Assembly: GCA_963707865.1 (NCBI GenBank)
Contig: OY970175.1
Coordinates: forward strand, 630,028 to 694,027
Direction: 5' to 3'
Length of the DNA stretch: 64,000 bases
From: an uncultured bacterium
GTDB lineage: Bacteria; Patescibacteriota; Minisyncoccia; UBA6257; 2-01-FULL-56-20
The translations under genes and the position numbers were made by a program. Shown here piece after piece: positions 13,966 to 62,528 of this stretch. The notes beneath the pieces are model-generated. The model made no database searches. It was not told the origin of the DNA and worked only from the letters and a program-made list of their open reading frames with translations. Each line of letters begins with the position of its first letter. Positions within the stretch are counted from its first letter, which is position 1.

Positions 13966-13974
13966 GGTCGCGTA

Positions 13975-16440: not shown

Positions 16441-17295
16441 ATGGCACGCAGACGCAGAGACGACGAAGAAGGTTCTATTTGGGGATTCATAGGTGGAGTC
16501 GTTTTGCTCTATCTCCTCTATATCGCCTTTCTCTATAACACCAACCGCGCCGCATACTGGCAACAGGTTTGGTATTTTGCGGCGTTCGTCATTGTCGTTT
16601 GCGCGGCAATCATCGCGTGGCAGATACTCATTCGTCGCTGGCGTGAAAAGCGACTGAACGACCTTCTTACGGCGGCAAAGCAGAACGGTCTAGAGGAATA
16701 CGTCAAGAACTTCATTGACCGTTTCGGTATGCAAAAGGGGAAGAAGACCGATTGGACGTTTCGCGGCCACTACTTCGACTGGCAACGACTAGAAGATTTT
16801 AGGAAGATATTGAACGAGAAAGGGATGCGTCTCTCCGCAGACAAATGGGATGCCACCCTTATCATCCTCAAACACTACATCCAAGAGAAAGAAGAACGTT
16901 TGACCCGCGAAAGCGTGAGCGTCCTGCCTCAAAAATTCTCCACGCTTTCCGGCTCCGATTTTGAGAATCTTTTGTACCGCCTGTTCACGGCCATGGGCTA
17001 CGCCGTCCAGAAAACGGGCAAGACCGGAGACCAAGGGGGTGATTTGGTTGCAAACATGAATGGGCAGAGAATTGTCATCCAAGCCAAGTGCTATTCAAAC
17101 ACAGTCGGCAACGCCGCCGTCCAAGAAGCCGTGGCCGCGCAGAAATTCTACGACTGCAACAAGGTTATGGTCGTTACAAACTCCAGCTTTACCAAGGAAG
17201 CCATCGAGTTGGCTAAGGCGAACAACGTCGAGCTTATCGGCGGTGGGAAATTAAGCGAATTGTTACTCCAAAACCTTAAAGAAAATTGGGGTTAA
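16441..17295 (+). CDS. Membrane-anchored Mrr-like (Mrr_cat) restriction endonuclease domain protein.
   Basis: N-terminal transmembrane helices. The C-terminal domain (FENLLYRLFTAMGYAV…GDQGGDLVA…IVIQAKCY…VTNSSFTKEA) matches the Mrr N-terminal catalytic (PD-(D/E)xK) fold. The gene is lower in GC than its surroundings. Confidence 0.6.
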   Translation: MARRRRDDEEGSIWGFIGGVVLLYLLYIAFLYNTNRAAYWQQVWYFAAFVIVVCAAIIAWQILIRRWREKRLNDLLTAAKQNGLEEYVKNFIDRFGMQKGKKTDWTFRGHYFDWQRLEDFRKILNEKGMRLSADKWDATLIILKHYIQEKEERLTRESVSVLPQKFSTLSGSDFENLLYRLFTAMGYAVQKTGKTGDQGGDLVANMNGQRIVIQAKCYSNTVGNAAVQEAVAAQKFYDCNKVMVVTNSSFTKEAIELAKANNVELIGGGKLSELLLQNLKENWG

Positions 17296-21118: not shown

Positions 21119-21192
21119 ATTTAGAGCTTGCGTTAATTCTACCGCCCATTATATGATTGTTCTATATAAAACAATTGTTTTATACTATCCTT

Positions 21193-22941
21193 ATGACCTC
21201 ATATTTCCTCTACGCCCGAAAATCCACCGATGTCGAAGATAAGCAGGTGCGCTCCATCGAAGACCAGCTCGCCGTCTTGCGTGCCTTGGCTAAGCAGGAG
21301 AACCTTCATATTTCCGAAGTGTTTGTGGAGAAACAATCGGCGAAGCGTCCGGGTCGTCCCGTGTTCGGCGAGATGGTTCGGCGTATCAACGAGGGAGAAG
21401 CGCAGGGCATCCTCTGTTGGAAGCTCGACAGGTTAGCCCGCAATCCGGTGGACGCGGCGCAGATAAGCTGGATGTTGCAGGAGGGCATCATCGAACACAT
21501 ACGGACGAACGACCGCGACTACCAGCCAAGCGACAACACGCTCCTTATGAATATGGAGTTCGGGATGGCGAACCAATATATTCTCGACTTGAGCGCGAAT
21601 ACGAAACGCGGCCTCCATGAGAAAGCGAAGCGGGGAGAGTATCCGAGCGTTGCCCCATTGGGCTATCAGAATGACTCGCGCACAAAGCAGATTGTCGTGG
21701 ATAGAAAAGAGTCGGTTATCGTCCGCGAAGCCTTTGAGCTGTATTCCCGCAATCAGTCCCGCCTTGAGGACATTTCAAAGTTCCTTTTCGATAAGGGCAT
21801 CCGCACCAAAGCTAACAACCGATGGATGAGCGAAGGCGGCAGGACGTGGAAACGCGACCAGATTACGGCGTTCCTATCGAACCCCTTTTATTGCGGCTTG
21901 TTCCGCTACGCCGGAGAGATTTTTGAAGGCAAATATACACCTATCATTTCCAAGCAACTGTTCGATAAAGTCCAAGCCGTCTTGAAGGAGCGGAGCAAGC
22001 CGCAGGTGAGAACCAAAGAACCGAAACCATTGTGCGGTTTGTTCCGTTGCGGCGAGTGCGGCCGGATGATTACGGCCGAAGTGCAGAAAGACCACACCTA
22101 TTATCGTTGCAGTAAGAAAGGGGTCGTCTGTTCCCAGCCCTATATCAGAGAGGAAGTTTTAGCAGTTCAACTATCCGATATACTAAAAGATTTCGCCGCG
22201 CCTTCGGATTGGGCGGTAGAACTTTCAAGAATGGCTGATGCCGACGAAGCGAACGCCATGCAATCCTCAATCGCGGCGAGCCAAGCCGTCAGAGAGGAGA
22301 TGCGGGTCATATCCCAAAAACTCCAGCGACTCCATCGGCTCTATTTGGACGAAGATATAGAGCGCGAGACCTATCTCGCGGAGAAGGAAGACCTCCTCTC
22401 CCGCCGGAAGTCGCTGGAAGGGAAACTCACCGGACTGGGCAATGGGTATCTGGCTTGGCTCGAACAGATGCGAGAGTGGATAAAAGACACATCATTACTT
22501 GGTGAAACTAGCGTTTCATCTTCCTTACCCCTCCAAAAATCGTCCGCCCAAAAAATCTTCGGCTCGAACATACTTCTCAAAAATCGTCGTATCGAATTTA
22601 CCCCCACCACACCATACGCTTCGCTCCGCGAAGCGCGGCTGAATTTTTATAATAAGGATTTAGTCTCTACTCTTGTGCCCGGGGTCGGAGTCGAACCGAC
22701 ACGTCCTTGCGGACAGCTGAGTTTAAGTCAGCTCTGTCTACCGGTTTCAGCACCCGGGCAAATCGGGTTGGAGGCCACGGCGGGAATCGCACCCGCGTAT
22801 AGCGGTTTTGCAGACCGCTGCGTTAGCTACTTCGCCACGTGGCCGTGCCTCAATCTTACTTTTTTAAGAGCGCTTTTTCAACCGCCGCAGCGTTCTCCAC
22901 GCCATGATCAAGGGATATCGATATCCGCGGCATCGGTTTGA
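21193..22941 (+). CDS. Large serine recombinase. The ORF reads through IR-B' and two tRNA genes without a stop, so the true C-terminus is uncertain.
   Basis: YARKSTDVEDKQ…SIEDQ resolvase domain, recombinase domain, Zn ribbon (CGLFRCGECGRM…YYRCSKKGVVC) and a coiled coil. The ORF starts at 21157 and ends at 22941. Confidence 0.8.
   Translation: MTSYFLYARKSTDVEDKQVRSIEDQLAVLRALAKQENLHISEVFVEKQSAKRPGRPVFGEMVRRINEGEAQGILCWKLDRLARNPVDAAQISWMLQEGIIEHIRTNDRDYQPSDNTLLMNMEFGMANQYILDLSANTKRGLHEKAKRGEYPSVAPLGYQNDSRTKQIVVDRKESVIVREAFELYSRNQSRLEDISKFLFDKGIRTKANNRWMSEGGRTWKRDQITAFLSNPFYCGLFRYAGEIFEGKYTPIISKQLFDKVQAVLKERSKPQVRTKEPKPLCGLFRCGECGRMITAEVQKDHTYYRCSKKGVVCSQPYIREEVLAVQLSDILKDFAAPSDWAVELSRMADADEANAMQSSIAASQAVREEMRVISQKLQRLHRLYLDEDIERETYLAEKEDLLSRRKSLEGKLTGLGNGYLAWLEQMREWIKDTSLLGETSVSSSLPLQKSSAQKIFGSNILLKNRRIEFTPTTPYASLREARLNFYNKDLVSTLVPGVGVEPTRPCGQLSLSQLCLPVSAPGQIGLEATAGIAPAYSGFADRCVSYFATWPCLNLTFLRALFQPPQRSPRHDQGISISAASV
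22520..22676. repeat. Right arm of IR-B. It overlaps the recombinase 3' end and terminates at the tRNA-Leu(TAA) 3' end.
   Basis: Inverted copy of 19675..19832. Confidence 0.75.
22675..22759 (-). tRNA. tRNA-Leu (anticodon TAA).
   Basis: Manual fold: acceptor GCCCGGG, anticodon loop CTTAAAC, long variable arm, T-arm GTCGG-TTCGACT-CCGAC. Confidence 0.75.
22769..22844 (-). tRNA. tRNA-Cys (anticodon GCA).
   Basis: Manual fold: acceptor GGCCACG, anticodon loop CTGCAAA, encoded CCA. Confidence 0.75.
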
Positions 22942-31160: not shown

Positions 31161-31607
31161 ATGAAAATCACGGTTGTTCTTTTTATCCTCATCTCGGCGG
31201 GACTGATTTTCTCCAGCTACTTGAGCGCCGTGAAACTTTTCTCCGGTGCCTGTGCATTCAATGAAACGTGCCCGTACTTTCTTGGCTATCCCGCCTGTTG
31301 GTACGGATTCTCCATGTATCTGTTTATGTTCATTGTGACGGGCATAGGACTCACGCGGAAGTTGCCCCTCGTCGCACTATGTAAGGCGGATGCGACAGTA
31401 TCGCTCCTCGGTATCATATTCGCGGGCAGCTTTGTCGTCCAGGAAATCGCGGCGGCACAGGTTACTGGAACGCGCGGGTTCTCCACCTGTGCGTATGGCC
31501 TTATTTTTTACATTGCCATTTTTGCAACCGCACTCGTCGGCCTTCGAAAATCCCGCACAGCCATGTCCCCCGCCACAGAACGCCCCGTCACAGAACACCA
31601 TGTATGA
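31161..31607 (+). CDS. Polytopic membrane protein (possibly a VKOR-like or DUF-family protein).
   Basis: Four or five transmembrane helices with periplasmic Cys pairs (CAFNETC…C). Start taken at the internal MKIT. Confidence 0.35.
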   Translation: MKITVVLFILISAGLIFSSYLSAVKLFSGACAFNETCPYFLGYPACWYGFSMYLFMFIVTGIGLTRKLPLVALCKADATVSLLGIIFAGSFVVQEIAAAQVTGTRGFSTCAYGLIFYIAIFATALVGLRKSRTAMSPATERPVTEHHV

Positions 31608-32694
31608 GCGCATCCTGAAGCCGATCCTTTTCCGTTTTGATCCGGAAAGGGTGCACGATTTTTTCGTATGGTTCGGTGAGACGCTCGGAAAATTTGCATT
31701 CACGCGCCGCATCGTAGGCGCTTTTTGCGAATACGATCACCCCGCGCTCCATACGCGGGTGCTCGGCATTGACTTCAAAAATCCCGTCGGGCTTGCGGCG
31801 GGTTTTGACAAAGACATGCGCCTTACGGAGATCATGCCGTCGGTCGGATTCGGTTTCATGGAAGTTGGCGCGGTGACGCACCATCCCTATGAGGGGAACA
31901 AAGGCCTCCGGCTCGCCCGCCTTCCGGCCGACCAGTCGCTCATTGTCTATTACGGCCTCAAGAACATCGGAGCGGAAGCCATTCAGAAAAAATTGCAGCG
32001 CCTGCATTTCGCGATACCCGTGGGCGTAAACATCGCAAAAACGAATCGCGCGGACATCGAAGGAGAAAAATCGGTTGAAGATTACGCGGCGACCTATCGG
32101 ATGCTCGGCAAATATTTCTCGTACATGACGCTCAACGTTTCCTGCCCAAACGCCCAGGACGGCTGCATGTTCCAAGATCCAAAATTACTGGACGAGCTGC
32201 TCGCGGCGATCGCAAAAGAGAAAAAACCGTGCCCGGTACTCCTCAAGATCTCCAATCACCTCACCGAAAAGGAAGTGGACGAAATCCTCGCGGTCGTAAA
32301 GAAATATTCTTTCGTGGACGGGTTCGTTGTCGGCAATCTTTCCAAGCGGCGCGACATCCTCGCGCTCAAGTCGCCGAGGGAACGGCTTAATCTCATCCCC
32401 GCGGGCGGCATTTCAGGAAAACCGATCCGCGAGCTTGCGACAGGGCTCATCCGCCATATCTATCGCGCGACTGGGGGGAAATACGTCATCATCGGACTCG
32501 GCGGAATTTTCACCGCGGAAGATGCCTATGAAAAGATCAAAGCTGGCGCCTCGCTCGTACAGATCATCACCGGACTCATCTATGGCGGACCGCAAGCGGT
32601 GAAAAAAATAAATAAAGGGCTTGTCGCCATCCTTGAACGGGATGGCTATACACACATAAACGAAGCGGTTGGGAAAGAAACCGGGCGGCCTTAA
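31600..32694 (+). CDS. pyrD: Dihydroorotate dehydrogenase (quinone), class 2.
   Basis: FMN-binding barrel motifs (NPVGLAAGFDK…, SCPN, GGISG…GASLVQIITGLIYGGP). Start at MYERILK. Confidence 0.85.
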   Translation: MYERILKPILFRFDPERVHDFFVWFGETLGKFAFTRRIVGAFCEYDHPALHTRVLGIDFKNPVGLAAGFDKDMRLTEIMPSVGFGFMEVGAVTHHPYEGNKGLRLARLPADQSLIVYYGLKNIGAEAIQKKLQRLHFAIPVGVNIAKTNRADIEGEKSVEDYAATYRMLGKYFSYMTLNVSCPNAQDGCMFQDPKLLDELLAAIAKEKKPCPVLLKISNHLTEKEVDEILAVVKKYSFVDGFVVGNLSKRRDILALKSPRERLNLIPAGGISGKPIRELATGLIRHIYRATGGKYVIIGLGGIFTAEDAYEKIKAGASLVQIITGLIYGGPQAVKKINKGLVAILERDGYTHINEAVGKETGRP

Positions 32695-38765: not shown

Positions 38766-40187
38766 CTACCCCTTCGTGCTGCGGTCGTTCACGCTCACAA
38801 AGCGGAACCCTTCCGAGCGCATGGCGGGGAGGATATAGGGCGTGTCATCATTCTCCATAGAAAGCGTGGGGTGCGAAGGCGAGAGGTGTGTGACGCGGCT
38901 CAGGGCCTGGGGCAAACTTTCGTCAAAGCGGAGGTGCTCAGTGGGACCGACAACCTCGCCATCCTTCACGAGGAAAACGCCGTGGAGCGTGGTGCCGGTG
39001 GCGCTCCCGTCCTGCTGGTGCGTCGCGCGGATATAATGGAGCGTCGTGATCCAGAGCGCGGGCTTTTTTGACGCGCGGATCATTTCTTCCACGTTTGAAG
39101 CGCCGCCTTCAATCGCAAGGTGAAGCGGCAGGGCGCCGAAACTCCTCATGGACGCCGGTAGAGCGTGGCCAGTGGAAACCGTACCGTATTTTTTCGCGAG
39201 CGCGTTGTCGTACGCCACACCCTTCGCAATGCCTTTTTCCACAAGCACAAGCTTCTGCTTCGGAAATCCTTCGTAATCAAACGCTTGTGGAATGCCCTGC
39301 GGATTTAAAGGGTCGTCCACGATCGTGATGTTCTCCCCCATCACGCGCGTGCCGAGCTTTCCGGAAAAAAAGCTCGTGCCTTCCTGGTACGCTTTCCCAT
39401 TCCACGCTTCCGCCTGCCCCGAAAAAATCGCGAGGAGCCCCGCCCAACATGACGGCTCCATGATCACGTCCAATCGCTGCGGCCCCGGTTTCCCGCCAAA
39501 GGGATCAATGCGCTTCCCACCGTGCGCCGTAAGATATTTTTTTTGGATCGCGAGTTTCTTTCTCACATCCTCCGCGACCACGGCGACACCGAATTCCTTG
39601 AGCGATTTCCCCGCCACCGTGCGGTATGCGGAAATAGAACGGTCATTCGGATCAAAACCGAAGATGGAAAGTTCCGCGCTCGTGGCCTTCGCATTCTGGA
39701 GAGTACCTGCAGAATTCGCGAATGTGAGCTCGCTCACGCCCTGCGCAATCGCGCCGTCAAATACGAATCCCGCCGGTTCAATGATTCCGTTCACTTCCTG
39801 TATGGTGCGCACGAGCTTTCCGTCATCCATTTGCGCGGTTTCCGCGTCGTAGAGCAGCGCCTCCGGAACGGATGCTTTGGGGAACGGTTTCGCGGGAATG
39901 AAAAGTTCCTCCCTTTCGCGCGGCAGGAGGCGCGCCTTCAAAAATAAATTTTCAATTTCGCCCGGGAGCGCGCCCAATGAATCGCACGATGCGTTCACCC
40001 GCTTGCCGTCAATGATGCAGCTCACCATGATGGAAATCCCCTCGCCCGCCGTCGGCTGGTAACTCTCGCCGTCCGTGATGCGCTTGAATGAGTGTGTGCC
40101 TTGCGAAACCATCGCTTCCGTAAACGCTGCGCCTCGTTTTTTTGTATCCTCAAGAACTTTTGCGATAATCTCCTGTGCGTTTTTCAT
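38766..40187 (-). CDS. pmbA: TldD/PmbA-family metalloprotease (PmbA-like partner).
   Basis: PmbA_TldD fold, paired with the upstream tldD-like gene. Confidence 0.7.
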   Translation of the reverse strand: MKNAQEIIAKVLEDTKKRGAAFTEAMVSQGTHSFKRITDGESYQPTAGEGISIMVSCIIDGKRVNASCDSLGALPGEIENLFLKARLLPREREELFIPAKPFPKASVPEALLYDAETAQMDDGKLVRTIQEVNGIIEPAGFVFDGAIAQGVSELTFANSAGTLQNAKATSAELSIFGFDPNDRSISAYRTVAGKSLKEFGVAVVAEDVRKKLAIQKKYLTAHGGKRIDPFGGKPGPQRLDVIMEPSCWAGLLAIFSGQAEAWNGKAYQEGTSFFSGKLGTRVMGENITIVDDPLNPQGIPQAFDYEGFPKQKLVLVEKGIAKGVAYDNALAKKYGTVSTGHALPASMRSFGALPLHLAIEGGASNVEEMIRASKKPALWITTLHYIRATHQQDGSATGTTLHGVFLVKDGEVVGPTEHLRFDESLPQALSRVTHLSPSHPTLSMENDDTPYILPAMRSEGFRFVSVNDRSTKG

Positions 40188-40228
40188 GTTGGGGAAAATT
40201 TTTGAAAATATTCGGCGAGGTGTACGTG

Positions 40229-41782
40229 CTATTTTTTCACGGCGGTCGCCGAACGCGATGAATCAACATTGATATCTTTGTACCAGGTGGGCGGCGTACA
40301 ATGCCCGGTGGCCATACTTTGCACCGGCCGTCCTTTCCCGCAATTGCCGACGCCGAGCAAGAGCGCACTCTTTGCATCTGCGGGCGTCACGCAGTTCCTG
40401 AAAAACTGCTTCAAATTGTCACCACGATAAATAGGATTGCGCCGCGGCTCCCATACCGCCCTCCCGTTCCGCAAAACTTTCTCCCATCCGGTCTCCGTGC
40501 CGAACTGGAAATCGCGGCGGTAGGGATCAATGGACCAGCTCTTGTTGTTGCCGAAGCGGATCGTTCCCGCGGGCACGCGGTCCAGCATCTCCTCATACGA
40601 AATTTCGCCGGGGAGGAGAGAAATATTGTTCATGCGAATAAGTGGAAACGCGGCATAGCTCGCCGCGCGCATGGCGCCGCTCGCTTCCGTGAAATAATTT
40701 TTGCCGAGTTTGCGATTGAGCGACGGCACGCTCTCGCGGGAAACAAGAAGTCCCTTCCAGATGCCGCGATCCACGAGCACCGTCTTTTTCGCAGGAACCC
40801 CTTCGTCGTCGCAGGCGAACGTCCCCACGCCGCCCTCCGTCAAGCTGTCGGCAACGATGCTCACTGCGTCAGAACCAAACCGAAACGAGCCGATCTCGGG
40901 GAGCACAAGCGAGAACAAGCTGCCGCCAGAGAGCGACCATTCTTTGTCGTCCACGCGATCACCTTCCGCGCCGTGTACCGTTTCGTGCGTCGCATGCAGG
41001 TTATTCTGTTCCGGCATCAAAATGATGTCGCGCACGCCAGTCGGGGTTTCCGACGCATCCAAAAACCGATCCGCCTCTTCCGCAATCCGCCCCGCGTTTC
41101 CCGCAAGATCAAAATCAAGCACCGCTTCCCACCCTTTTTGCATGACCGACGGGAAGTGCGACGGGTGGGAACAGGTCTGCTTGTCCGGATCGGCATGGTC
41201 GCGTTCTGCGGTCGCCGTGACGCTTGCGCCGACGCGCGTGAACATTTGGTCGGCGAACACCTCGTCGCTCGTGAGCAAAATCTTTCTGAAGCGATAGGAG
41301 TTTATGCTCCCCTTTCTCAAAAACACGCGCTTGCTCGCATCGGCCATCGCCCGATCCGCGCGCAAAAGCAATTCCACTTTTTTATCAACCGCAATGGAAA
41401 ATGGATCGGTCTCATATTTGGAAGCGTAATGATAATCCTTTCCGCGTTCGTCCTCGCAAAGCGGCAGGAGCGCGACAGGATGCTTGCGCGTCGCCGCATT
41501 CGCACGCGCGTTCGCGAGCGCGCGGTCCACTACCTTCCCAATCTCCGCCCGCTCCAATGTATCGGTCGCATAAAATCCCCAGGCGCCCTCGCAAAGCACA
41601 CGCACGCCGAATCCCGCATGCGTGCCCGTACTCACACTCGTGACTTCGCCGTTCTCCGTTTCCACTTCTTCAAAACGATCCTCGGGGTAAACTCGTATAT
41701 CTGCATAGGAAGCGCCCCCGCGCCTTGCGCGCTGAATCGCTTCCTCGGTGAACGAACGCCAATCCTCCATAATGCTTTCCAT
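40229..41782 (-). CDS. tldD: TldD-family metalloprotease.
   Basis: TldD-like sequence with a conserved His-rich segment (HATHETVHGAEGD). Start chosen at the internal MESIMEDW; the ORF extends to 41866. Confidence 0.7.
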   Translation of the reverse strand: MESIMEDWRSFTEEAIQRARRGGASYADIRVYPEDRFEEVETENGEVTSVSTGTHAGFGVRVLCEGAWGFYATDTLERAEIGKVVDRALANARANAATRKHPVALLPLCEDERGKDYHYASKYETDPFSIAVDKKVELLLRADRAMADASKRVFLRKGSINSYRFRKILLTSDEVFADQMFTRVGASVTATAERDHADPDKQTCSHPSHFPSVMQKGWEAVLDFDLAGNAGRIAEEADRFLDASETPTGVRDIILMPEQNNLHATHETVHGAEGDRVDDKEWSLSGGSLFSLVLPEIGSFRFGSDAVSIVADSLTEGGVGTFACDDEGVPAKKTVLVDRGIWKGLLVSRESVPSLNRKLGKNYFTEASGAMRAASYAAFPLIRMNNISLLPGEISYEEMLDRVPAGTIRFGNNKSWSIDPYRRDFQFGTETGWEKVLRNGRAVWEPRRNPIYRGDNLKQFFRNCVTPADAKSALLLGVGNCGKGRPVQSMATGHCTPPTWYKDINVDSSRSATAVKK

Positions 41783-41865
41783 TGTAAGAAAATTCGGGCC
41801 TAAACGCCAGAGCCCACCTGCGGGCCCTGGCACCAATTCCCTCACGCTTTTCGTATAATTATCCA

Positions 41866-42444
41866 ATGAAAAAATATTTCCTGTCTTTTTTCCTCGTCAT
41901 CGCTTTCGCGTTTTACGTTATGCTCAACAACCAAAGTTCGGTGGATATCGGTCCTTCCGCCGGCGCGCCGATAACGGCGAACACCGGTGCCAATGCGAAC
42001 AACGCAGCGGGCTTGCCCGCCGAGCCGACGCAAAGGAGTACGGGCAGCGGCACGACGGGCCAGACGGAGGACAACGGCAGCTCGGGGAACGGAGGAACCG
42101 CAACGCCGTCGCCTGCGCCGACACAAACGCCAACCCCGACGCCGGCACAAACTGCGGGCGCATATAAAGACGGCTCTTACACTGGAAGTGTGGCCAACGC
42201 GTACTATGGCAATGTCCAGGTGAAAGCAATTGTCCAGGGCGGGCAACTAAGCGACGTACAAGTTCTCCAATACCCGAGCGACCGCGGCACTTCGCGCGAG
42301 ATCAACGGCGCCGCAATGCCGCAGCTTGTGCAAGAGGCGATCCAGGCGCAGAGCGCGAACGTAAACGTCGTTTCGGGTGCTACGCAATCAAGCGGAGCGT
42401 TTCAACAATCGCTCGCCTCGGCGCTCGCGCAGGCAAAAGCATAG
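41866..42444 (+). CDS. Secreted FMN-binding domain protein (NqrC/RnfG-like FMN_bind).
   Basis: Signal-anchor, Thr/Pro-rich linker and FMN_bind motifs (YKDGSYTGSV…VQVKAIVQGGQLSDVQVL…VSGATQSSGAF). Confidence 0.65.
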   Translation: MKKYFLSFFLVIAFAFYVMLNNQSSVDIGPSAGAPITANTGANANNAAGLPAEPTQRSTGSGTTGQTEDNGSSGNGGTATPSPAPTQTPTPTPAQTAGAYKDGSYTGSVANAYYGNVQVKAIVQGGQLSDVQVLQYPSDRGTSREINGAAMPQLVQEAIQAQSANVNVVSGATQSSGAFQQSLASALAQAKA

Positions 42445-42457
42445 ACCGCACCGCACG

Positions 42458-43210
42458 ATGAAAGAAACGAGGATCCTGATGGACATGCCGATCACGGTGG
42501 AGATCGCGGATGCGGCGGACGCAAAAGCCGCCGAAGAAGCCGTGCGCGCGGCGTTCAATTATTTCAAATACGTGGACGAAAAATTCAGTACCTACAAAGA
42601 TACAAGCGAGATCACGGCGATCAATAAGGGAAACCTCCCATCCGAAAAGCGAAGCAAAGAAATGAAAAATATTTTCAAACTTTCGGAAGAAACCAAAAAA
42701 CTTACGGATGGTTATTTTGATATTAAACGCCCCGACGGCATGTACGACCCGTCAGGCATAGTGAAAGGATGGGCAATTTGGCAAACCGCAAAAATGGTTG
42801 AAGAGCGGGGCTTCAAAAATTTCTACGTGGACGCGGGCGGCGACATCCAAACGCACGGCGCGAACGCGGACGGCGGGAAGTGGGCGGTTGGGATAAAAAA
42901 TCCGTGGGACGAAAAAGAAAATGTGAAAATAGTATATGTAAGCGGCGAGGGTGTTGCAACCTCGGGCACTTACATCCGCGGGACACACATATATGATCCC
43001 ACGACCGGCAGGGCGGCGGACGAAATTGCGAGCATCACGGTCGTTGGCCCGAACATCTACGAAGCGGACCGCTTCGCGACCGCCGCATTCGCCATGGGCC
43101 GCGCGGGCATTCGTTTTATAGAAAAACTGGATGGCCTTGAGGGATACATGATAGATAAAAACAAAACTGCCACCATGACGAAGGGCTTTCCGAACTACAC
43201 GCATGCTTAA
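42458..43210 (+). CDS. apbE: FAD:protein FMN transferase ApbE.
   Basis: ApbE family (…TKKLTDGYFDI…GIVKGWAI…DAGGDI…ATSGTYIRG). Start at the internal MKETRIL. Confidence 0.75.
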   Translation: MKETRILMDMPITVEIADAADAKAAEEAVRAAFNYFKYVDEKFSTYKDTSEITAINKGNLPSEKRSKEMKNIFKLSEETKKLTDGYFDIKRPDGMYDPSGIVKGWAIWQTAKMVEERGFKNFYVDAGGDIQTHGANADGGKWAVGIKNPWDEKENVKIVYVSGEGVATSGTYIRGTHIYDPTTGRAADEIASITVVGPNIYEADRFATAAFAMGRAGIRFIEKLDGLEGYMIDKNKTATMTKGFPNYTHA

Positions 43211-44735
43211 GAAAATAGACAATCTTCTCAACCAGATCACGATGTACCGGCTCACGCTCTACGTTTTGATCGCGTTCCTCGTGATCGCCGCCGCGTTCGG
43301 CGCCCTGGGCATTCTTCCCTATTCGCCCGTCGTAATCGCGTTTTCAACCGCGGTGCTCCTTGTTGTTGCATGGATCACGAACCAGCTCTTCGCAAAAACC
43401 TTCGGCGCGCAGCCGAACGTAGAATCGGTCTACATCACGGCGCTCATTCTGGCGCTCATCATCGCGCCCGTCATGCCCTCCGGCACCCCGGCAAGCATGG
43501 CCGGTGTTTCGTTCCTTATCTGGGCGGCAATCTGGGCAATGGCGTGCAAATACATGCTCGGGAACAAGAAAAAACACTTCTTCAACCCGGCAGCCTTTGC
43601 GGTCGTGCTCACCGCCCTCACCATCAATCAATCTGCGAATTGGTGGATTGGCGGGAACCTGCCCATGCTTGCCTTCGTTGTAATCGGCGGGTTTCTCATC
43701 GTGCGGAAGATACGGCGGTTTGACCTTGTGACAAGCTTTCTTGCCGTTGGCCTCGCGACGATCTTCCTCACTAACACCGGCGAGAATCCGCTGACCGTGC
43801 TCCAACAGGTGTTCCTCCACACGCCGATCTTTTTCCTCGCATCAGTGATGCTCACGGAACCCTTGACGACACCCCCCACACGACCGGGAAGGATCGCTTA
43901 CGGCGCGCTCGTCGGATTCCTCTTTGCGCCCGCGATCCACATCGGTTCCATTTATTCCACTCCGGAGCTCGCGCTCCTCGTTGGCAACGTTTTTTCCTAT
44001 CTCGTAAGTCCGAAGGAAAAATACGTGTTCTCGCTCAAAAAGAAGGAACGGGTCGGTACCGACATTTACGACTTTGCGCTCGCAACAGAAGGACCGATCT
44101 CTTTCCGCCCCGGCCAATATATGGAGTGGACTCTGGGCCATACGAAGAGCGACAGCCGCGGCAACCGCCGTTACTTCACCGTCGCATCATCGCCCACCGA
44201 ATCCACCCTGCACCTCGGCGTGAAATTCTACGAACCCTCAAGCAGTTTCAAAAAACGCATGCTTTCCCTGCAACCGGGCGACCTGATCGTGGGCGGACAA
44301 CTCGCGGGAGATTTCGTGCTGCCAAAGAGCAAACATAAAAAACTTGTCTTTCTCGCCGGCGGCATTGGTATCACGCCCTTCCGCAGCATGGTCAAATACC
44401 TCGTGGACCGCGAAGAGAAGCGGGATGTCGTGCTTCTCTATTCCAACCGCACCGCGGACGAGGTGTCATACCGCGAAATTTTTGACGAGGCGGCGCGCAC
44501 GATCGGGCTCAAAACGATCTATGCCGTAACGGGCGCCGACGGACCGCTCCCGCCGAACAGCTACCGGGGGCGCATTGACGCCGATCTCATTGCAAAAGCC
44601 GTCCCCGACTACCGCGAACGGACTTTCTATATTTCAGGGACGAATGCGATGGTAAATTCGCTCCGCGACACGCTCCACGCAATGCACATCCCCGACCGCC
44701 GCGTGAAAACCGACTTCTTCCCGGGATTCGCGTAG
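43203..44735 (+). CDS. Fusion protein: an RnfD/NqrB-like membrane domain plus a ferredoxin-NAD(P)+ reductase-like (NqrF-like) FAD/NAD(P)H domain.
   Basis: The N-terminal polytopic region carries the RnfD/NqrB signature MLTEPLTTPP…GRIAYGALVGFL. The C-terminal half has RYFTVASSP (RxYS) and GGIGITP motifs typical of FNR-type modules. Confidence 0.55.
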   Translation: MLKKIDNLLNQITMYRLTLYVLIAFLVIAAAFGALGILPYSPVVIAFSTAVLLVVAWITNQLFAKTFGAQPNVESVYITALILALIIAPVMPSGTPASMAGVSFLIWAAIWAMACKYMLGNKKKHFFNPAAFAVVLTALTINQSANWWIGGNLPMLAFVVIGGFLIVRKIRRFDLVTSFLAVGLATIFLTNTGENPLTVLQQVFLHTPIFFLASVMLTEPLTTPPTRPGRIAYGALVGFLFAPAIHIGSIYSTPELALLVGNVFSYLVSPKEKYVFSLKKKERVGTDIYDFALATEGPISFRPGQYMEWTLGHTKSDSRGNRRYFTVASSPTESTLHLGVKFYEPSSSFKKRMLSLQPGDLIVGGQLAGDFVLPKSKHKKLVFLAGGIGITPFRSMVKYLVDREEKRDVVLLYSNRTADEVSYREIFDEAARTIGLKTIYAVTGADGPLPPNSYRGRIDADLIAKAVPDYRERTFYISGTNAMVNSLRDTLHAMHIPDRRVKTDFFPGFA

Positions 44736-44841: not shown

Positions 44842-46008
44842 ATGGCACACTGCGAACATTGCTTTCCGTTCCCACCACGCCACTTTGAGAACTGGTTCAA
44901 CGACCTTCTGGAGCTTTTGTTCTATCCTCCTTTTGAACGCATAACGCCGTCTCTTTTCAATTCTCAGTTTTTTGAAAAGGCGATCACGAACTGCTTTGTT
45001 TTTGTCGGCATCGTGCGGAAAGAGAAAGAATTCCCGCTTAATGAGATAAATCCCATTGCGGCGCTCTTTATACAACACGGGAGGGCGAGAGGCATAGAAT
45101 TTGAAGCCCTGCGGGGACCCTTCGGCTATCTCACGTTTTTCCGGATGCGCATTGGAGGGCAGTCGTACGAATTTGACCGCCTCCCCGGCGCCTCAGCGAA
45201 CTCCCTTGCCGCAGACGACAAATGGCACACGAAAAAAGCGCTCCGCAAGCTGGGCTACCCCGTTGCAGAAGGAATGCCGTTCTGGTGGTTCCAAAAACGC
45301 AAGGCGGCGCACTACGCGGAAATGCTCAGATACCCCGTCGTCGTAAAACCGCGCAAGGGATCTTTGAGCCAGCACCTCTTTGTCGTAAAATGCGCCTCCG
45401 AGCTCCTGCCGGCGCTCCACGGCGTCGCGCAATACTCGCCGGTATGCATGGTAGAAAAATTCGTTCCCAGCGCCACTTTGTACCGCATAACGATCGTGGA
45501 CGGCGAGAAAATGTTCGTCGTGAAGCGCCTCCCCGCAGAGGTCACGGGCGACGGAAAAAGCACGCTCCGAGCACTCATCCACAAAATAAAATTCGATCAA
45601 AAAAATCTTGACAAGGTCATTCTCAAAGAACAAGGGGTCGGCCTTGATTTGCTCATCGCAAAGGGAAAAAAAATATTTCTCCAGCGCAAGGCCATCCTCG
45701 CGCTCGGATCAAAAATAGAAGAGGTTCCTCTCTCCGAGGTACATCGCGATATCGTCGCCGCGAGCCAAGCTATTGCGAAGCACTTCCGCCTGCCGCTCGT
45801 CGGCATTGATATCCTTCTTCGCGACCACACGCGACCGCTCAAGGATCAAACCGCCGCGATCCTGGAACTCAACACTCTCCCAAACATCCTCATGCACACG
45901 TCCGAGAAAAACGGTGAAACAGAGAATAAAGTCGCCGACGCGCTCGTGGATTTCGCGCTCACGCACTTCGGCGGGCAGATAAATGACGGGCAAATAAATC
46001 AGCGTTAG
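44842..46008 (+). CDS. ATP-grasp family protein (cyanophycin-synthetase N-terminal- or RimK-like ligase).
   Basis: ATP-grasp core (YPVVVKPRKGSLSQHLFVV…MVEKFVP…ELNTLPNI). Confidence 0.45.
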   Translation: MAHCEHCFPFPPRHFENWFNDLLELLFYPPFERITPSLFNSQFFEKAITNCFVFVGIVRKEKEFPLNEINPIAALFIQHGRARGIEFEALRGPFGYLTFFRMRIGGQSYEFDRLPGASANSLAADDKWHTKKALRKLGYPVAEGMPFWWFQKRKAAHYAEMLRYPVVVKPRKGSLSQHLFVVKCASELLPALHGVAQYSPVCMVEKFVPSATLYRITIVDGEKMFVVKRLPAEVTGDGKSTLRALIHKIKFDQKNLDKVILKEQGVGLDLLIAKGKKIFLQRKAILALGSKIEEVPLSEVHRDIVAASQAIAKHFRLPLVGIDILLRDHTRPLKDQTAAILELNTLPNILMHTSEKNGETENKVADALVDFALTHFGGQINDGQINQR

Positions 46009-46364
46009 CGCTCGTCCGGAAATTCAAACATTGGTGCGTCGTGATCTATGATAACGCGGCCGGTAATCTTTTCCTCGGAATCCCACAGAATTGCCCAATG
46101 GTGCTGTGTATTCTTATTGCAGCGGCACTCGGTTATCGGTTTCCCGGAAGCATCCTCTTTATGCCCATACCGAATGGGCTGTCTTCCCTCGCAACCGGGG
46201 TGCGGACAAAGAAATAATCTTGCAAGCGTTCCTTCTTTTCTTGTATCAAATGTTTCTCCGGGCTGAAACGGCTTCGGATTGGGCGTCAATGGTCCCTCCT
46301 GCCGCAGCTCGCGTTCCCAATCGTCGGGGGGAAGCGACGGCGGCCCTTCTTCGGACCGCTCCAT
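46005..46364 (-). CDS. Small hypothetical protein with a Cys/His cluster (zinc-ribbon-like).
   Basis: C-terminal 119 aa of ORF 46005..46607, from the internal Met MERSEEG…; CPHPGCEG…CRCN. Confidence 0.3.
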   Translation of the reverse strand: MERSEEGPPSLPPDDWERELRQEGPLTPNPKPFQPGETFDTRKEGTLARLFLCPHPGCEGRQPIRYGHKEDASGKPITECRCNKNTQHHWAILWDSEEKITGRVIIDHDAPMFEFPDER

Positions 46365-46399
46365 CCGTGGTGAATGTGCAGTTTGTCTTTGATATTTGA

Positions 46400-47386
46400 A
46401 CGGCGGCGGACCGGCGGGACATCGAGATACTTCGCAGTAAGGGCCGCTCGCTCCAGGAGATCGCGGATACGTTTCATCGGCCAAAGAGCGGCATTTGGTA
46501 CGAACTCCAGAAGAGGCGGAAAGGGAGATCGTATGACGCTGAATATGCAAAGCACCTGCACTATGTGCGGATGCGACAAAAGCGGAAAATCGGCAAGAAG
46601 ATAGCATTTCATGACGACCTCAAACGATTCGTTGATGCCGCCCTCCTGGATGACCAGGCGCCGGAGGAGATCGCAAAACGACTGAGGCGCATTGAACGGC
46701 GCCTGCCCTATGTTTCCGCTTCGGCCATCCGGCGCTACCTCAAAAGCGTCTACGGGCGGAGAATCGAATACCATCGGAGCAAAGTCTTCAAAAAGAAACG
46801 GCGCAAAGTTGCGGTGCGGAAACAGATCCTGCACAAGAGGATGATCTCCAAGAGGCCAAGCAAAATCAACAAACGGTGGGGTCTTGGCCATATGGAAGGC
46901 GACTTCATCGTATCGGGGAAAAGCGGACGAGGCATGGTCTTCGCCCTCCGCGACCGGAAGGTACGGAAGAATCTTTTGGAGAAAATACTGCCGGTGTCGC
47001 TCCGCACGGTCGATCAGGCGCTGGGCAGGATGAAGCAGCGCTACCCGGAGATGCAGACGATCACTTTCGACAACGATATCCTGTTTCTTGAGCATCAAAC
47101 CTTGGAAAAGAAATATGGCATCAAGATATATTTCTGCTTCCCGCACTCCCCGTGGCAGAAGCCGAGTATCGAGCAACTGAACAAAGTACTGCGGCGCTAC
47201 ATCCCCAAAAGCTCCGACATATCAAAATATTCCCGCAGGTTCATCGCGAATCTTGAAAAGAAGATGAATCGCAAATTCATGGATGTCCTCCGTTCCCTCA
47301 CGCCCGATGAGGCGTATGAGAAAGAGAAGAAACAAAAACAGCGCCGGAGGGCGCGTCGGAAAGAAAAAACTCAGCGTTCAAATTGA
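46400..47386 (+). mobile_element. IS30-family transposase, N-terminally truncated with no start codon before the HTH region. Probably a degenerate or inactive copy.
   Basis: Open frame from the TGA at 46397-46399. The HTH region (LRSKGRSLQEIADTFHRPKSGIWYELQKRRKG) has no upstream start. The DDE domain motifs are GHMEGDFIV, TITFDND and FCFPHSPWQKPSIEQLNKVLRRYIPK. Confidence 0.65.
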
Positions 47387-54274: not shown

Positions 54275-55213
54275 CTATGCGCGCTTCAACTGGTCGTAGA
54301 TATTGAGGACGGCCTTCACGGCGTCGCCCACGGAGATATTGTTCTGCCGGTATGGGACATCCGTCACGTCCCCCACCGCCCAGATGCCCGGGCACGAGGT
54401 GCCCTGCGTACGCGCATCGATAACGACATGGCCAAAGTCGTCAAGCTTCACAAGGTCTTTCACAAAATCGGAGTTGGGAAGCAAGCCGACCTCCACAAAC
54501 ACACCGTCAAGCGCGAGATCTTTCTCTTCTCCTGTCTTCACGTCCTTCACGCGGATGCCGGTCACCGTATCTTTCCCCTTTACTTCCAAAACCACCGTGT
54601 TCCAAAGGATGGTCACCTTGGGATTTCCTTTCACTTTGTCCTGCGAGATGGGGTCGCCTTTCAAAATCTCCGAACGGACAATCAAATAAATCTTGGATGC
54701 ATAGGGAAAGAGATCCATGACCGACTCAAGCGCGGAATTCCCACCGCCAACCACGGCGGTCACTTTATCCTTGAAAATGGGCGCGTCGCACGTGGAGCAA
54801 TACACCACACCTTTCCCGTCAAATTCCTTCTCGCCGGGAACGCCGAGCTTTTTCCTGCGGCTGCCGGAAGCCAACAAGAAATATTTCGTTTCATATGTTT
54901 TTCCGTTCCGCGTCACAAGCGAAAAGCCCTGCCCGGCACCGGACAGGGCAGCATCCCTTTTTTGGATAGCAGCCACAAGATCATCATCCACAATATCAAT
55001 ATCGGTCTGCGCACGAAGATGTTCTTCCAACGACTTCGCAAGATCGTAGCCGGAAATGGACTTCGTGCCGATCCAGTTCTGCACGTCGGCCGAAACCACC
55101 GACTGGCCGCCGAAGCTGTCAGTGATAAGCAGTGTTTTTATTTTCTTCCTGGCGGCATACACGCCCGCAGCTACTCCACCGGGGCCACCGCCAATAATAA
55201 CCAAATCGTACAT
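54275..55213 (-). CDS. trxB: Thioredoxin reductase.
   Basis: FAD motif (IIGGGPGG), redox-active CSTCD motif, NADPH-binding motif (GGGNSA). Confidence 0.9.
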   Translation of the reverse strand: MYDLVIIGGGPGGVAAGVYAARKKIKTLLITDSFGGQSVVSADVQNWIGTKSISGYDLAKSLEEHLRAQTDIDIVDDDLVAAIQKRDAALSGAGQGFSLVTRNGKTYETKYFLLASGSRRKKLGVPGEKEFDGKGVVYCSTCDAPIFKDKVTAVVGGGNSALESVMDLFPYASKIYLIVRSEILKGDPISQDKVKGNPKVTILWNTVVLEVKGKDTVTGIRVKDVKTGEEKDLALDGVFVEVGLLPNSDFVKDLVKLDDFGHVVIDARTQGTSCPGIWAVGDVTDVPYRQNNISVGDAVKAVLNIYDQLKRA

Positions 55214-55713: not shown

Positions 55714-56592
55714 CTATCCTTTGATCGCCGCATTAATGGCTGCGAGGATCGCGCTTCCGTTCGCGCCGACGCTCTGACCAAGCGCATCCGTCACTTCTTT
55801 CCCGTTCACGAACGTCATGGGCGTTGAATTGACTCCGGCGTTCATGGCAGCGGCGTAATCCGCAGTGACCGTCGCAGTATATTTCCCGCTGTCAATACAA
55901 TTTGCAAAAGCGACGGCATTCATGCCAAGCTGGCCCGCGATCTTCAAGAACAGCGCACGGTTGAAAAATCCATTATCCTCTCCGCCACCCTTTGCCTCGT
56001 CAGCTGCCTTCGCGGCATAGAGCGCATCGTGATACGGCCAGAATTGGTTCTCATCTTTGGCGCACTCCGCCGCTGCCCCGGCCGCGTGCGACTCCCCCAC
56101 ACTGGACGAGGTGATTTCCGCACTGTCAAGGAATGGGAAATCCCTGAATACGAGCTTTGCCTTTCCCGCATTCACATAGTTCTGAATGATGAGCGGCTGA
56201 ACCTGTTCGTAGAACCGCGTGCAAAAGGGGCACTGGTAATCGCCGTATTCAACGACCGTCACGGGCGCGCTCGCATTGCCCAAGATCACGTCTCGGGGCC
56301 CGAGGGCGAGCGCCGCGGCTGCAGCGGCAGAAGGAGCTTGAGCTGTCCCGCCGTTCGCGGTTGGGGCACCGGCGTTTCCCGCGCCGACGCCCGGCGTGCT
56401 CGCGCTCGGCCGGTACAAGGTTGCAAAAAGAACCGACCCGCCGATAAGCACTGCCGCGATGATGATGCTTATGGGGAGAAGACGATCTTTACGTCCCCGC
56501 GGAAGCTTTTCTTCAACGGATATTTCATACCCGTCGCCCCGCTTCGCTTTCTCAATAGTTTCTTTGAATGAGATTTTTTCTTCGTCTTCCAT
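55714..56592 (-). CDS. Membrane-anchored DsbA-like thiol:disulfide oxidoreductase.
   Basis: Transmembrane anchor, Ala/Gly-rich linker, and a CPFC active site in a DsbA/thioredoxin fold. Confidence 0.75.
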   Translation of the reverse strand: MEDEEKISFKETIEKAKRGDGYEISVEEKLPRGRKDRLLPISIIIAAVLIGGSVLFATLYRPSASTPGVGAGNAGAPTANGGTAQAPSAAAAAALALGPRDVILGNASAPVTVVEYGDYQCPFCTRFYEQVQPLIIQNYVNAGKAKLVFRDFPFLDSAEITSSSVGESHAAGAAAECAKDENQFWPYHDALYAAKAADEAKGGGEDNGFFNRALFLKIAGQLGMNAVAFANCIDSGKYTATVTADYAAAMNAGVNSTPMTFVNGKEVTDALGQSVGANGSAILAAINAAIKG

Positions 56593-62009: not shown

Positions 62010-62528
62010 TCACGTATTTCTCCAGAAGCCGCGAATTGAACCATATTTCCCCGCCTTCTTCAGTCCGGCCCCCCGGCCAGCCACCTTTTTTACATACTCG
62101 TCCAAAAGCCCAGAGCTTGACTGCACCTTCCCACCGTGCCCAACATTGAAGACCATTTTACAACCAATTTCCCTGCATACCGGCACCTCCGGAATGTTTC
62201 CGAGCTTTCGGTTGCCTCCATTCGCGAAGATATCCGGCTTCAACTCAAAGAGCTCGCGGCACACACTTATATCTTTCGGGTTTTTCTTGTGTTTCGTAAG
62301 CACCACGCGGTCCACCGGCCGAAGCGCTTCAATAATCTCTTTTCGTTCGTGCTCCGGCATGAACACATGATGCTTCTTTTTTCGCAGCCAGTTGTCATTA
62401 TTCAAAATCACCACAAGCTCGTTGCCCAGCGCCTTCGCGCGTTCGAACAACCGCACGTGGCCGATATGAATCGGATCAAAACCTCCGCTCACGGCGACTA
62501 CGATTTTTTTTCTCTTGCGCGCCTTCAT
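62010..62528 (-). CDS. Cytidylyl/adenylyltransferase-like nucleotidyltransferase (RfaE domain II / TagD-like).
   Basis: HxGH motif (GGFDPIHIGHV). Confidence 0.6.
   Translation of the reverse strand: MKARKRKKIVVAVSGGFDPIHIGHVRLFERAKALGNELVVILNNDNWLRKKKHHVFMPEHERKEIIEALRPVDRVVLTKHKKNPKDISVCRELFELKPDIFANGGNRKLGNIPEVPVCREIGCKMVFNVGHGGKVQSSSGLLDEYVKKVAGRGAGLKKAGKYGSIRGFWRNT

Follow-up and report, generated by a model that had tools for sequence, protein, structure and literature searches.

The window analysed here is a 64-kb stretch of a Patescibacteria (Minisyncoccia-type) genome of ~0.9 Mb (the window's protein lies on a contig of 898,885 bp), and at positions 41866–44735, where an earlier note on this DNA had placed them, it contains three co-directional and closely packed open reading frames (ORFs). 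These code for an FMN_bind subunit of the NqrC/RnfG type, an ApbE-type transferase that moves flavin mononucleotide (FMN) from flavin adenine dinucleotide (FAD) onto protein, and a single polypeptide in which an RnfD/NqrB-like membrane domain is joined to an FNR-like oxidoreductase domain. The module is a member of the catalogued NQR/RNF-like flavinylation system, and is of an already known kind. We consider it probable that it serves as a transmembrane electron-transfer system of the published type, with the proposed path from NAD(P)H to the outside. The main practical value of the analysis is corrective, in that this is a standard and widespread module and not an unusual fusion.

The system termed NQR/RNF-like was defined by Méheust et al. 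(2021, eLife, PMC8238504) as a fusion of PF03116 and PF00175 within an ApbE/FMN_bind gene cluster, clusters being recognized by ApbE and/or FMN_bind within five genes, and 127 such clusters were counted, mainly in Actinobacteria and the candidate phyla radiation (CPR). The 510-aa fusion contains both domains (PF03116 NQR2_RnfD_RnfE, E 4.2e-13, 49.8 bits against a cutoff of 27.7; PF00175 NAD_binding_1, E 7.7e-14), and the genes for FMN_bind (PF04205, E 1.6e-6, 29.1 bits against a cutoff of 22) and ApbE (PF02424, E 8e-41, 140.8 bits against a cutoff of 25.6) are the two immediately upstream on the same strand. The architecture is identical to that of the published system, with nothing essential different. 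The genes are compactly arranged: 13 nt separate the FMN_bind stop codon from the ApbE ATG, and the ApbE stop codon and the fusion start codon overlap by 8 nt (ATGCTTAA), which points to translational coupling of these two genes. The blocks that the earlier note had quoted from the fusion (MLTEPLTTPP...GRIAYGALVG, RYFTVASSP and GGIGITP) are all found in its translation.

Among 83 related loci, FMN_bind was detected in 74 and ApbE in 72. An FMN_bind homologue is located directly upstream of ApbE or of the fusion in 74 of the 83, and the co-directional order FMN_bind–ApbE–fusion is kept in most; because the same order recurs so widely, the trio is far beyond chance. The exceptions include eight loci where FMN_bind and the fusion stay together and ApbE is a few kb away on the opposite strand, and no further conserved neighbor was found around the module in the 83 loci. 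Together with the Pfam matches, the recurring trio bears out the three-gene module and the domain calls made for it earlier. It might still be a decayed fragment of a canonical rnf/nqr operon without independent function, given that RnfD/NqrB-type and RnfG/NqrC-type genes adjoin apbE here as they do in rnf/nqr loci, but the conservation data effectively refute this: the sequence and order of the trio are conserved over hundreds of species (with fusion identities of 52–85%), the motifs are intact, the genes overlap and are apparently coupled, and both the fusion and a loop deletion described below are family-wide. There is also no other rnf/nqr gene in the scanned window ORFs, as none of the 44 other ORFs has a Pfam match to the Rnf/Nqr families, and no RnfB, RnfC or RnfA/E gene was seen either in these ORFs or adjoining the module in the 83 loci.

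More than 7,500 homologues of the fusion are found in the database at E ≤ 1e-5. Identity to it is 58–100% among the top 120; nearly all of these have both domains, and those that are named belong to Minisyncoccia, Paceibacterota or Patescibacteria. When one genome was scanned per species, a relative of the fusion turned up in at least 533 species genomes, mostly in Patescibacteria lineages with some in Chloroflexota; the membrane domain alone yields 1,374 50%-identity clusters at E ≤ 1e-3. The fusion is typical of tiny Patescibacteria genomes, and the suggestion that it is unusual in a reduced genome does not hold, as it defines the catalogued system itself. The family is also far more frequent in Patescibacteria than the 127 clusters that were counted with a signal-peptide filter, and this filter may account for the finding that flavinylation is "strikingly underrepresented" in CPR (Méheust et al. 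2021, PMC8238504).

Features of the flavinylation module at positions 41866–44735 of the window
Feature	Position	Strand	Basis and remarks
FMN_bind (NqrC/RnfG-type) subunit gene, membrane-anchored (predicted)	41866..42444	+	192 aa; Pfam FMN_bind
Signal-anchor, N-terminal MKK plus hydrophobic segment, residues 1-21	41866..41928	+	Predicted N-in/C-out; Kyte-Doolittle, 19-residue window
Low-complexity Pro/Thr/Gly/Ala/Ser-rich tether, residues ~22-104 (~80 residues)	41929..42177	+	Read from translation
FMN_bind domain, residues 113-187	42202..42426	+	PF04205 model positions 2-76 of 77
Flavinylation motif S170-G-A-T173 in N-V-V-S-G-A-T	42373..42384	+	Regular expression [ST]GA[ST]
ApbE FAD:protein FMN transferase gene	42458..43210	+	250 aa; Pfam ApbE; without signal peptide or lipobox
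Overlap of fusion start codon and ApbE stop codon	43203..43210	+	8 nt; read from sequence
RnfD/NqrB-like::FNR-like fusion gene	43203..44735	+	510 aa; PF03116 and PF00175
RnfD/NqrB-fold membrane domain, residues 1-270	43203..44012	+	~10 helices; AlphaFold2, Foldseek, profile search
T79, counterpart of NqrB T162 (riboflavin ligand)	43437..43439	+	Alignment; T or S in 52/53
H125-F-F-N128 of KKHFFNPAA, counterpart of NqrB N200...N203-P204-A205 (riboflavin ligands)	43575..43586	+	H in 50/53, N in 53/53
M216-LTEPLTTPPTR227 block	43848..43883	+	Second, significant stretch of the NqrB/RnfD alignment
Cytoplasmic FNR-type FAD/NAD(P)H oxidoreductase domain (predicted), residues 273-510	44019..44732	+	Pfam, NCBIfam, Foldseek; C-terminal DFFPGFA
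FAD motif RRYFTVASSP	44166-44195	+	R322-R-Y-F-T326 (RxY[ST] type)
NAD(P)H motif GGIGITP	44358-44378	+	G386-G-I-G-I-T-P392 (GxGxxP type)

The RnfD/NqrB homology of the N-terminal domain had been set out beforehand as a refutable claim, and the alignment succeeds by two routes. A Foldseek search with an AlphaFold2 model of the full fusion (mean predicted local distance difference test score, pLDDT, 82.4) returned only matches to the FNR domain, and the N-terminal domain was therefore modelled alone (residues 1-272, mean pLDDT 85.6). With this model every one of the 15 best PDB matches is an RnfD or NqrB chain (E 1.5e-6 to 5e-4; query-normalised TM-score 0.60–0.68), led by the RnfD chains 9eri_D and 8rbq_D, and the next match has only E 0.11. 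A profile of 53 family members searched against the PDB also finds only RnfD and NqrB chains, with RnfD 8ahx_D at E 6.9e-8 and NqrB at E 6.6e-6 in two collinear stretches; an earlier profile of 36 sequences gave the same register. The NCBIfam model TIGR01946 (rnfD) scores the fusion at 23 bits, with a cutoff of 207. In the model, the basic loops KKKH (122-125) and RKIRR (168-172) are on one side together with the C-terminal domain, which is consistent with both termini of the membrane domain being cytoplasmic.

The membrane domain differs from NqrB where NqrB is itself flavinylated. NqrB residues 212-274, the loop that includes the covalently flavinylated Thr236, correspond to only ~15 residues in the fusion family, so that the alignment indicates a deletion of ~48 residues and a loop that has been lost, not merely mutated. 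A flavinylation motif had been expected in the fusion, but because of this deletion there is none: [ST]GA[ST] is absent by regular expression from the fusion, from 32 of 33 close homologues and from 147 of 150 distant ones. This agrees with Huang et al. (2024, PMC10979944), who pointed out that the flavinylation Thr of NqrB/RnfD lacks conservation within the NQR/RNF-like system.

The pocket for non-covalent flavin, on the other hand, appears to be retained. The riboflavin ligands of NqrB are T162, N200, N203 and D346, with backbone contacts from G198, A205 and F342 (Hau et al. 2023, PMC10643135, Extended Data Fig. 6). Their side-chain counterparts in the fusion are T79, H125 (a His in place of N200), N128 and E219 (E or D in 53/53 members), and each falls within one of the family's three best-conserved blocks, ESVYITALILALII-P, KKH-FNPAA and MLTEPLTTPPTR. 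By this alignment the MLTEPLTTPP block highlighted in the earlier note would be the equivalent of NqrB helix VIII, and the side chains of an NqrB-type riboflavin pocket appear conserved, marking a predicted flavin site. A conserved pocket combined with a deleted covalent-FMN loop predicts where the middle cofactor would be placed. Iron-sulfur (Fe-S) clusters and haem were considered as the membrane cofactor and rejected: the sole Cys of the fusion (C115) is Ser in most of the 53 aligned members and, being non-conserved, argues against an Fe-S cluster, and the membrane domain has only two conserved His, one of which maps to a riboflavin ligand. With no Fe-S or haem ligands, FAD on the cytoplasmic side and FMN_bind predicted outside, the obvious intermediate carrier would be a flavin in this pocket.

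The same region invites a reading in which the fusion is a minimal redox-driven ion translocator that keeps the NqrB/RnfD ion path and couples flavin electron transfer to Na+ or H+, for example with cation export offsetting the charge of the exported electrons, which would make a two-protein energy-converting device. NqrB is the Na+-conducting subunit of NQR, and its F338/F342 gate is on helix VIII beside D346 (PMC10643135); the counterparts F211 (53/53) and V215 (V or I), just upstream of the M216 block, are conserved together with E/D219 (53/53), as are the hydrophobic residues I78, L81 and L85 (counterparts of NqrB V161, I164 and L168) and the near-invariant acidic or polar residues N60, E74 and E255. 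We nevertheless regard this as unlikely. Riboflavin binding by these residues is enough to explain their conservation without an ion path; coupling in NQR depends on conformational switching of NqrC, NqrD and NqrE (PMC10643135), none of which is present here; the covalent FMN that is proposed to open the gate when reduced is deleted; the Na-1 site consists of backbone carbonyls and is not readable from sequence; and electrons would move in the opposite spatial direction to those in NqrB.

A link to quinone has been weighed on the same alignment, with the fusion acting either as an NAD(P)H:quinone reductase or as a quinol-to-outside oxidase, serving for example the quinone-type dihydroorotate dehydrogenase (DHODH) encoded 10 kb upstream. 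NqrB passes riboflavin electrons to ubiquinone at its cytoplasmic rim (PMC10643135), and a class-2 quinone-dependent DHODH in the window implies some membrane electron acceptor. The glycines G140 and G141 of the NqrB quinone/inhibitor site, however, are matched by residues other than Gly, nothing in the fusion corresponds to the first ~130 residues of NqrB (among them the helix that is recruited when quinone binds), and the strictly co-inherited FMN_bind subunit and ApbE would be left without an obvious role. Patescibacteria are not known to make quinones, which also counts against such a link, and we judge it very unlikely. The DHODH gene itself (31390-32694, +) matches NCBIfam NF003652 with 354 bits against a cutoff of 267, from about residue 70 onwards, and its quinone-type assignment is unexpected in a lineage generally regarded as lacking quinones and respiratory chains.

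The C-terminal domain had been described as NqrF-like, and this was right as to its type and too specific as to its family. It is an FNR-type FAD/NAD(P)H module whose RRYFT and GGIGITP motifs are invariant in 33 homologues; beyond the PF00175 match, FAD_binding_6 is hit weakly (E 0.005), and Foldseek matches GcoB, flavohaemoglobin and the NqrF FAD domain at E ~1e-15, with target-normalised TM-scores of up to 0.87 over ~240 residues. Among NCBIfam models, flavohaemoprotein reductase (1e-24), Hcr (5e-18) and PaaE (7e-17) all outscore NqrF (2.2e-9), and the nqrF match covers residues 351-504 only and is far below its cutoff. In NqrF of Na+-NQR the FNR part is preceded by a transmembrane helix at the N-terminus and by a 2Fe-2S ferredoxin domain, whereas in the fusion the FNR module follows the membrane domain directly and an NqrF-type 2Fe-2S domain is absent. 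The domain is best described as a complete, generic FNR-type module.

The FMN_bind protein is the predicted acceptor of covalent flavin. The motif [ST]GA[ST] occurs in it once, as SGAT at residues 170-173 where the earlier note had advised looking for one, and this is the only such motif of the locus; T173 is the predicted FMN attachment site. All 74 FMN_bind homologues have V-[DNS]-x-[VI]-[ST]-G-A-[TS], with the final T/S 17–20 residues from the C-terminus, although they vary in total length from 116 to 310 aa. Compared with the Dxx[ST]GA[ST]-type motif, the window copy has Asn in place of Asp, a position that is D, N or S among the homologues. The N-terminus (MKK followed by a hydrophobic segment, with a Kyte-Doolittle (KD) 19-residue maximum of 1.76 at residue 4) is scorable either as a signal peptide or as an anchor, and the protein contains no Cys and therefore has no lipobox. 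A hydrophobic N-terminal segment is present in most homologues (KD over 17 residues above 1.8 in 61 of 74), and Lys and Arg are more numerous before it than after it in 58 of 72 anchors.

The ApbE protein is well conserved in its catalytic core. It aligns to solved ApbE structures (4xgw/2o18) at E 2.5e-22 and keeps the catalytic and Mg/FAD-binding blocks of these (KGW, ATSG, the His of GTHIYDP, and EAD), with a ~45-residue internal segment missing relative to E. coli-type ApbE. Its N-terminus is unusual, in that signal peptide, lipobox and transmembrane segment are absent from the window protein and from all 72 homologues in the related loci, which begin directly at the mature fold; in the window copy, residue 21 aligns with residue 35 of the mature crystallised protein. 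The ORF as listed runs from 42377 to 43210 and starts with a GTG at 42377, a start that was rejected, as it adds 27 hydrophilic residues only and the homologues' conserved N-terminus (M-K-x-T-R-x-x-M-G-M-P, n=72; MKETRILM... in the window) fits the ATG at 42458. No start codon in the window can give ApbE a hydrophobic N-terminus, the KD 19-residue maximum of the whole protein being 0.75. Export of ApbE as a frameshift or read-through fusion to FMN_bind was also rejected: the two genes are in different frames, separated by a TAG stop and the 13-nt spacer, and several loci have a stop in the ApbE frame 0–1 codons before the Met.

ApbE normally bears a lipoprotein or secretion signal. Cytosolic ApbEs are known with cytosolic substrates only, e.g. 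for Klebsiella fumarate reductase, and this precedent and the leaderless ApbE in 72/72 loci are what speak for cytosolic flavin chemistry, with an FMN_bind domain that faces the cytoplasm and a module that is no extracytosolic electron exporter. By the positive-inside rule, though, the charge distribution in the 58 of 72 anchors puts the N-terminus of FMN_bind inside and its domain outside; a long tether rich in Pro, Thr and Ser is what surface proteins typically have; the anchor-out topology is shared with NqrC and RnfG; and in the published multimer model the domain is docked at the outer face (PMC10979944). A wholly cytosolic role is on these grounds improbable, and we retain an exported FMN domain as the preferred reading.

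Where that exported domain acquires its flavin is the concrete question that the universally leaderless ApbE poses. Because ApbE is leaderless in every locus examined, we favor, with low confidence, flavinylation in the cytoplasm, most likely on the C-terminal motif and ahead of the export of this region. ApbE is able to modify 7-residue terminal tags, and a folded substrate is therefore not required. For Listeria, by comparison, one study (PMC9973259) reports flavin trafficking to the outside mediated by an energy-coupling factor (ECF) transporter for extracytosolic flavinylation. Cytosolic flavinylation, if it occurs, would make an FAD exporter unneeded in a reduced genome, and maturation before export would be a route not described for exported flavoproteins; the flavinylation papers searched contain no mention of a leaderless ApbE for the NQR/RNF-like system. 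The larger proposal that combines both themes, a flavin-only redox-driven ion translocator with a gated path that is the main energy converter of many Patescibacteria without respiratory chains, and whose FMN subunit is matured by cytosolic ApbE before export, strikes us as decidedly unlikely.

For the electron-transfer reading that we prefer, the steps can be laid out as follows. The cytoplasmic FNR-type domain would, by homology, oxidise NAD(P)H on its FAD. Electrons would then pass to a non-covalent, riboflavin-like flavin in the membrane-domain pocket formed by the conserved ligands T79, H125, N128 and E219, and from there to covalent FMN on T173 of the anchored FMN_bind subunit, which ApbE would have installed from FAD. 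This last transfer follows the model that Huang et al. (2024, PMC10979944) built with AlphaFold-multimer for the Ktedonobacter complex of two subunits, where docking of the NqrC/RnfG-like subunit brings its flavin towards the site of the non-covalent flavin; the subunit would occupy the outer face, where NqrB would bear its own covalent FMN. Finally, the tethered FMN domain would reduce an extracytosolic acceptor. The flow would be one-way from inside to outside, with no Fe-S cluster or haem and with the NqrA, NqrD, NqrE and NqrF or RnfA, RnfB, RnfC and RnfE subunits absent. The earlier note had proposed such a flow from cytoplasmic NAD(P)H to an outside flavoprotein, and as an idea this is supported, matching the one-way transfer proposed by Méheust et al. 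(PMC8238504).

Several points weigh against this reading. The system has no biochemically characterised member, and cofactor occupancy (including the middle flavin), subunit docking, direction of flow, donor nucleotide (NADH or NADPH) and acceptor are all inferred. The mapping of residues in the first half of the membrane domain comes from a weak hidden Markov model stretch (conditional E 3e-5 to 6e-5, independent E 5.6–11); this stretch and the significant second half are collinear, and the mapping fits the fold match. Across the 83 loci, the module is not accompanied by any conserved gene for a terminal reductase or an acceptor. The leaderless ApbE is at odds with a substrate domain predicted to be extracytosolic, and in Salmonella the periplasmic location of ApbE is essential and a cytosolic version did not complement.

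As to the acceptor, the module may be an electron sink that regenerates NAD(P)+, or may reduce ferric iron for uptake. The second would make the module an assimilatory ferric reductase (extracellular Fe(III) to Fe(II)), a sub-case of the reading above that fixes the acceptor, and which we hold to be possible but doubtful. Pointing towards it are a fusion in Candidatus Liptonbacteria whose immediate neighbors are an Nramp transporter on one side and an Fe/Mn superoxide dismutase on the other, 4 further loci of the 83 with Nramp-like ORFs no more than 6 kb from the fusion, VIT1 in six of the published NQR/RNF-like clusters (PMC8238504), and the iron-uptake links described in the literature for the analogous MsrQ-like and PepSY-like NAD-binding fusions. 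A metal-transporter neighbor is, however, found in only ~5% of loci, the window locus has none within ~10 kb, and the Liptonbacteria locus (L003) and one other (L018) are without nearby FMN_bind and ApbE. The Nramp neighbors are a weak hint of a link to metal handling, either iron or manganese. The Liptonbacteria locus (L003:8694-12355, JAUSEL010000084.1) is also notable as an example of a fusion with neither FMN_bind nor ApbE adjacent.

The module is one of very few membrane redox modules across Patescibacteria, and belongs to a class that is catalogued and known from sequence. If the proposed path is true, fermentative and host-dependent cells could shed reducing equivalents, or reduce iron outside the cell, with two proteins and their flavins. 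Four points add to what the published NQR/RNF-like descriptions were seen to contain, namely the leaderless ApbE (72/72), the ~48-residue deletion of the T236 loop, the retention of the riboflavin ligands, and the higher frequency of the family in Patescibacteria.

Comparison with better-known systems shows shared parts in different arrangements. Na+-NQR (NqrABCDEF, Vibrio cholerae) shares the NqrB fold with riboflavin-pocket residues in the membrane domain, an FMN_bind subunit resembling NqrC (N-terminal anchor, SGAT near the C-terminus), an FNR module resembling the C-terminal half of NqrF, and maturation of the flavoprotein by ApbE. The window module differs in having no NqrA, NqrD, NqrE, 2Fe-2S domain, intramembrane Fe-S cluster or NqrB covalent FMN, there are no recognisable quinone-site features in the fusion, and the FNR part is fused directly to the B-type subunit; its electrons would leave riboflavin for the outer FMN, in reverse to those of NQR. 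RnfD of RNF (RnfABCDGE) is a slightly closer match to the membrane domain than NqrB is, the partner is RnfG-like, and NCBI labels fusion homologues as "RnfABCDGE type electron transport complex subunit D". The module is nonetheless NAD(P)H-linked by its FNR domain, whereas RNF uses the RnfC FMN/Fe-S module, and the D-type domain of the fusion is without covalent FMN.

The extracellular electron transfer system of Listeria monocytogenes (Ndh2, EetA/B, PplA, FmnB) follows the same logic, from cytosolic NADH to a surface-tethered FMN_bind protein flavinylated by ApbE (FmnB), and on to external acceptors. There, however, the membrane is crossed by means of a type II NADH dehydrogenase together with EetA/B and a dedicated quinone, where here there is one flavin-only fusion, and FmnB is a secreted lipoprotein fed with FAD exported by an ECF transporter, unlike the leaderless ApbE of the module. 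NOX/FRE-type proteins and the MsrQ-like or PepSY-like::NAD_binding fusions likewise join a membrane conduit to a cytoplasmic FNR-type NAD(P)H dehydrogenase domain, and SpNOX is among the Foldseek matches through its FNR domain. Their conduits are bis-haem helical bundles, in contrast to the RnfD/NqrB fold of the fusion, which is without the haem His pattern and has a predicted flavin.

The genes flanking the module were considered as further parts of it and rejected. Directly 3' of the fusion is a stand-alone ATP-grasp protein gene (44842-46008, +), the product of which resembles the middle of cyanophycin synthetase (NCBIfam E 2e-37, residues 124-370); as detectable homologues follow the fusion in only 8 of the 83 loci, it is probably outside the flavin module. 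Upstream and divergently transcribed is a PmbA/TldD-type metallopeptidase pair (38766-41866, -), present in 2 of the 83 loci and conserved only in the two closest relatives. The mechanically called start of the TldD ORF (TTG at 41866) abuts the FMN_bind ATG, and the true start is probably ~28–32 codons further downstream.

Beyond the ATP-grasp gene is a 273-aa basic ORF (46565-47386, +) with a sub-threshold match to an integrase core (rve, E 0.024), possibly a degenerate insertion sequence transposase, and a 200-aa ORF without a family match (46005-46607) that is antisense to it and overlaps it. Gene calls for the close relative L001 include none of 273 aa downstream of its ATP-grasp gene, a comparison made without a sequence search for homologues. 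Other redox and nucleotide-related genes in the window include a thioredoxin-reductase/AhpF-like flavoenzyme (54275-55213, -) and a DsbA/Thioredoxin_4 protein (55714-56592, -), the latter of which may act outside the cytoplasm. The ORF at 62010-62528 was considered as an FAD synthetase and rejected, and is more likely an RfaE-type or other nucleotidyltransferase.

A ParB and ParA pair (12847-14793, -) adjoins RelA/SpoT, TopA and DprA genes; despite parAB, a replication origin is not evident in the window, where the cumulative GC skew falls steadily with no turning point. Two large serine recombinases with Resolvase, Recombinase and Zn_ribbon_recom domains are encoded at 4996-6339 (+) and 21157-22941 (+). 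The ORF of the second runs antisense across tRNA-Leu and tRNA-Cys genes (22675-22844) and borders a low-GC stretch (0.45 at 18-22 kb), and an Mrr-type restriction endonuclease (16441-17295) and a tetratricopeptide repeat (TPR) protein (17300-19204) are encoded nearby; the region with the recombinase, the low GC content and Mrr looks like an integrated mobile island.

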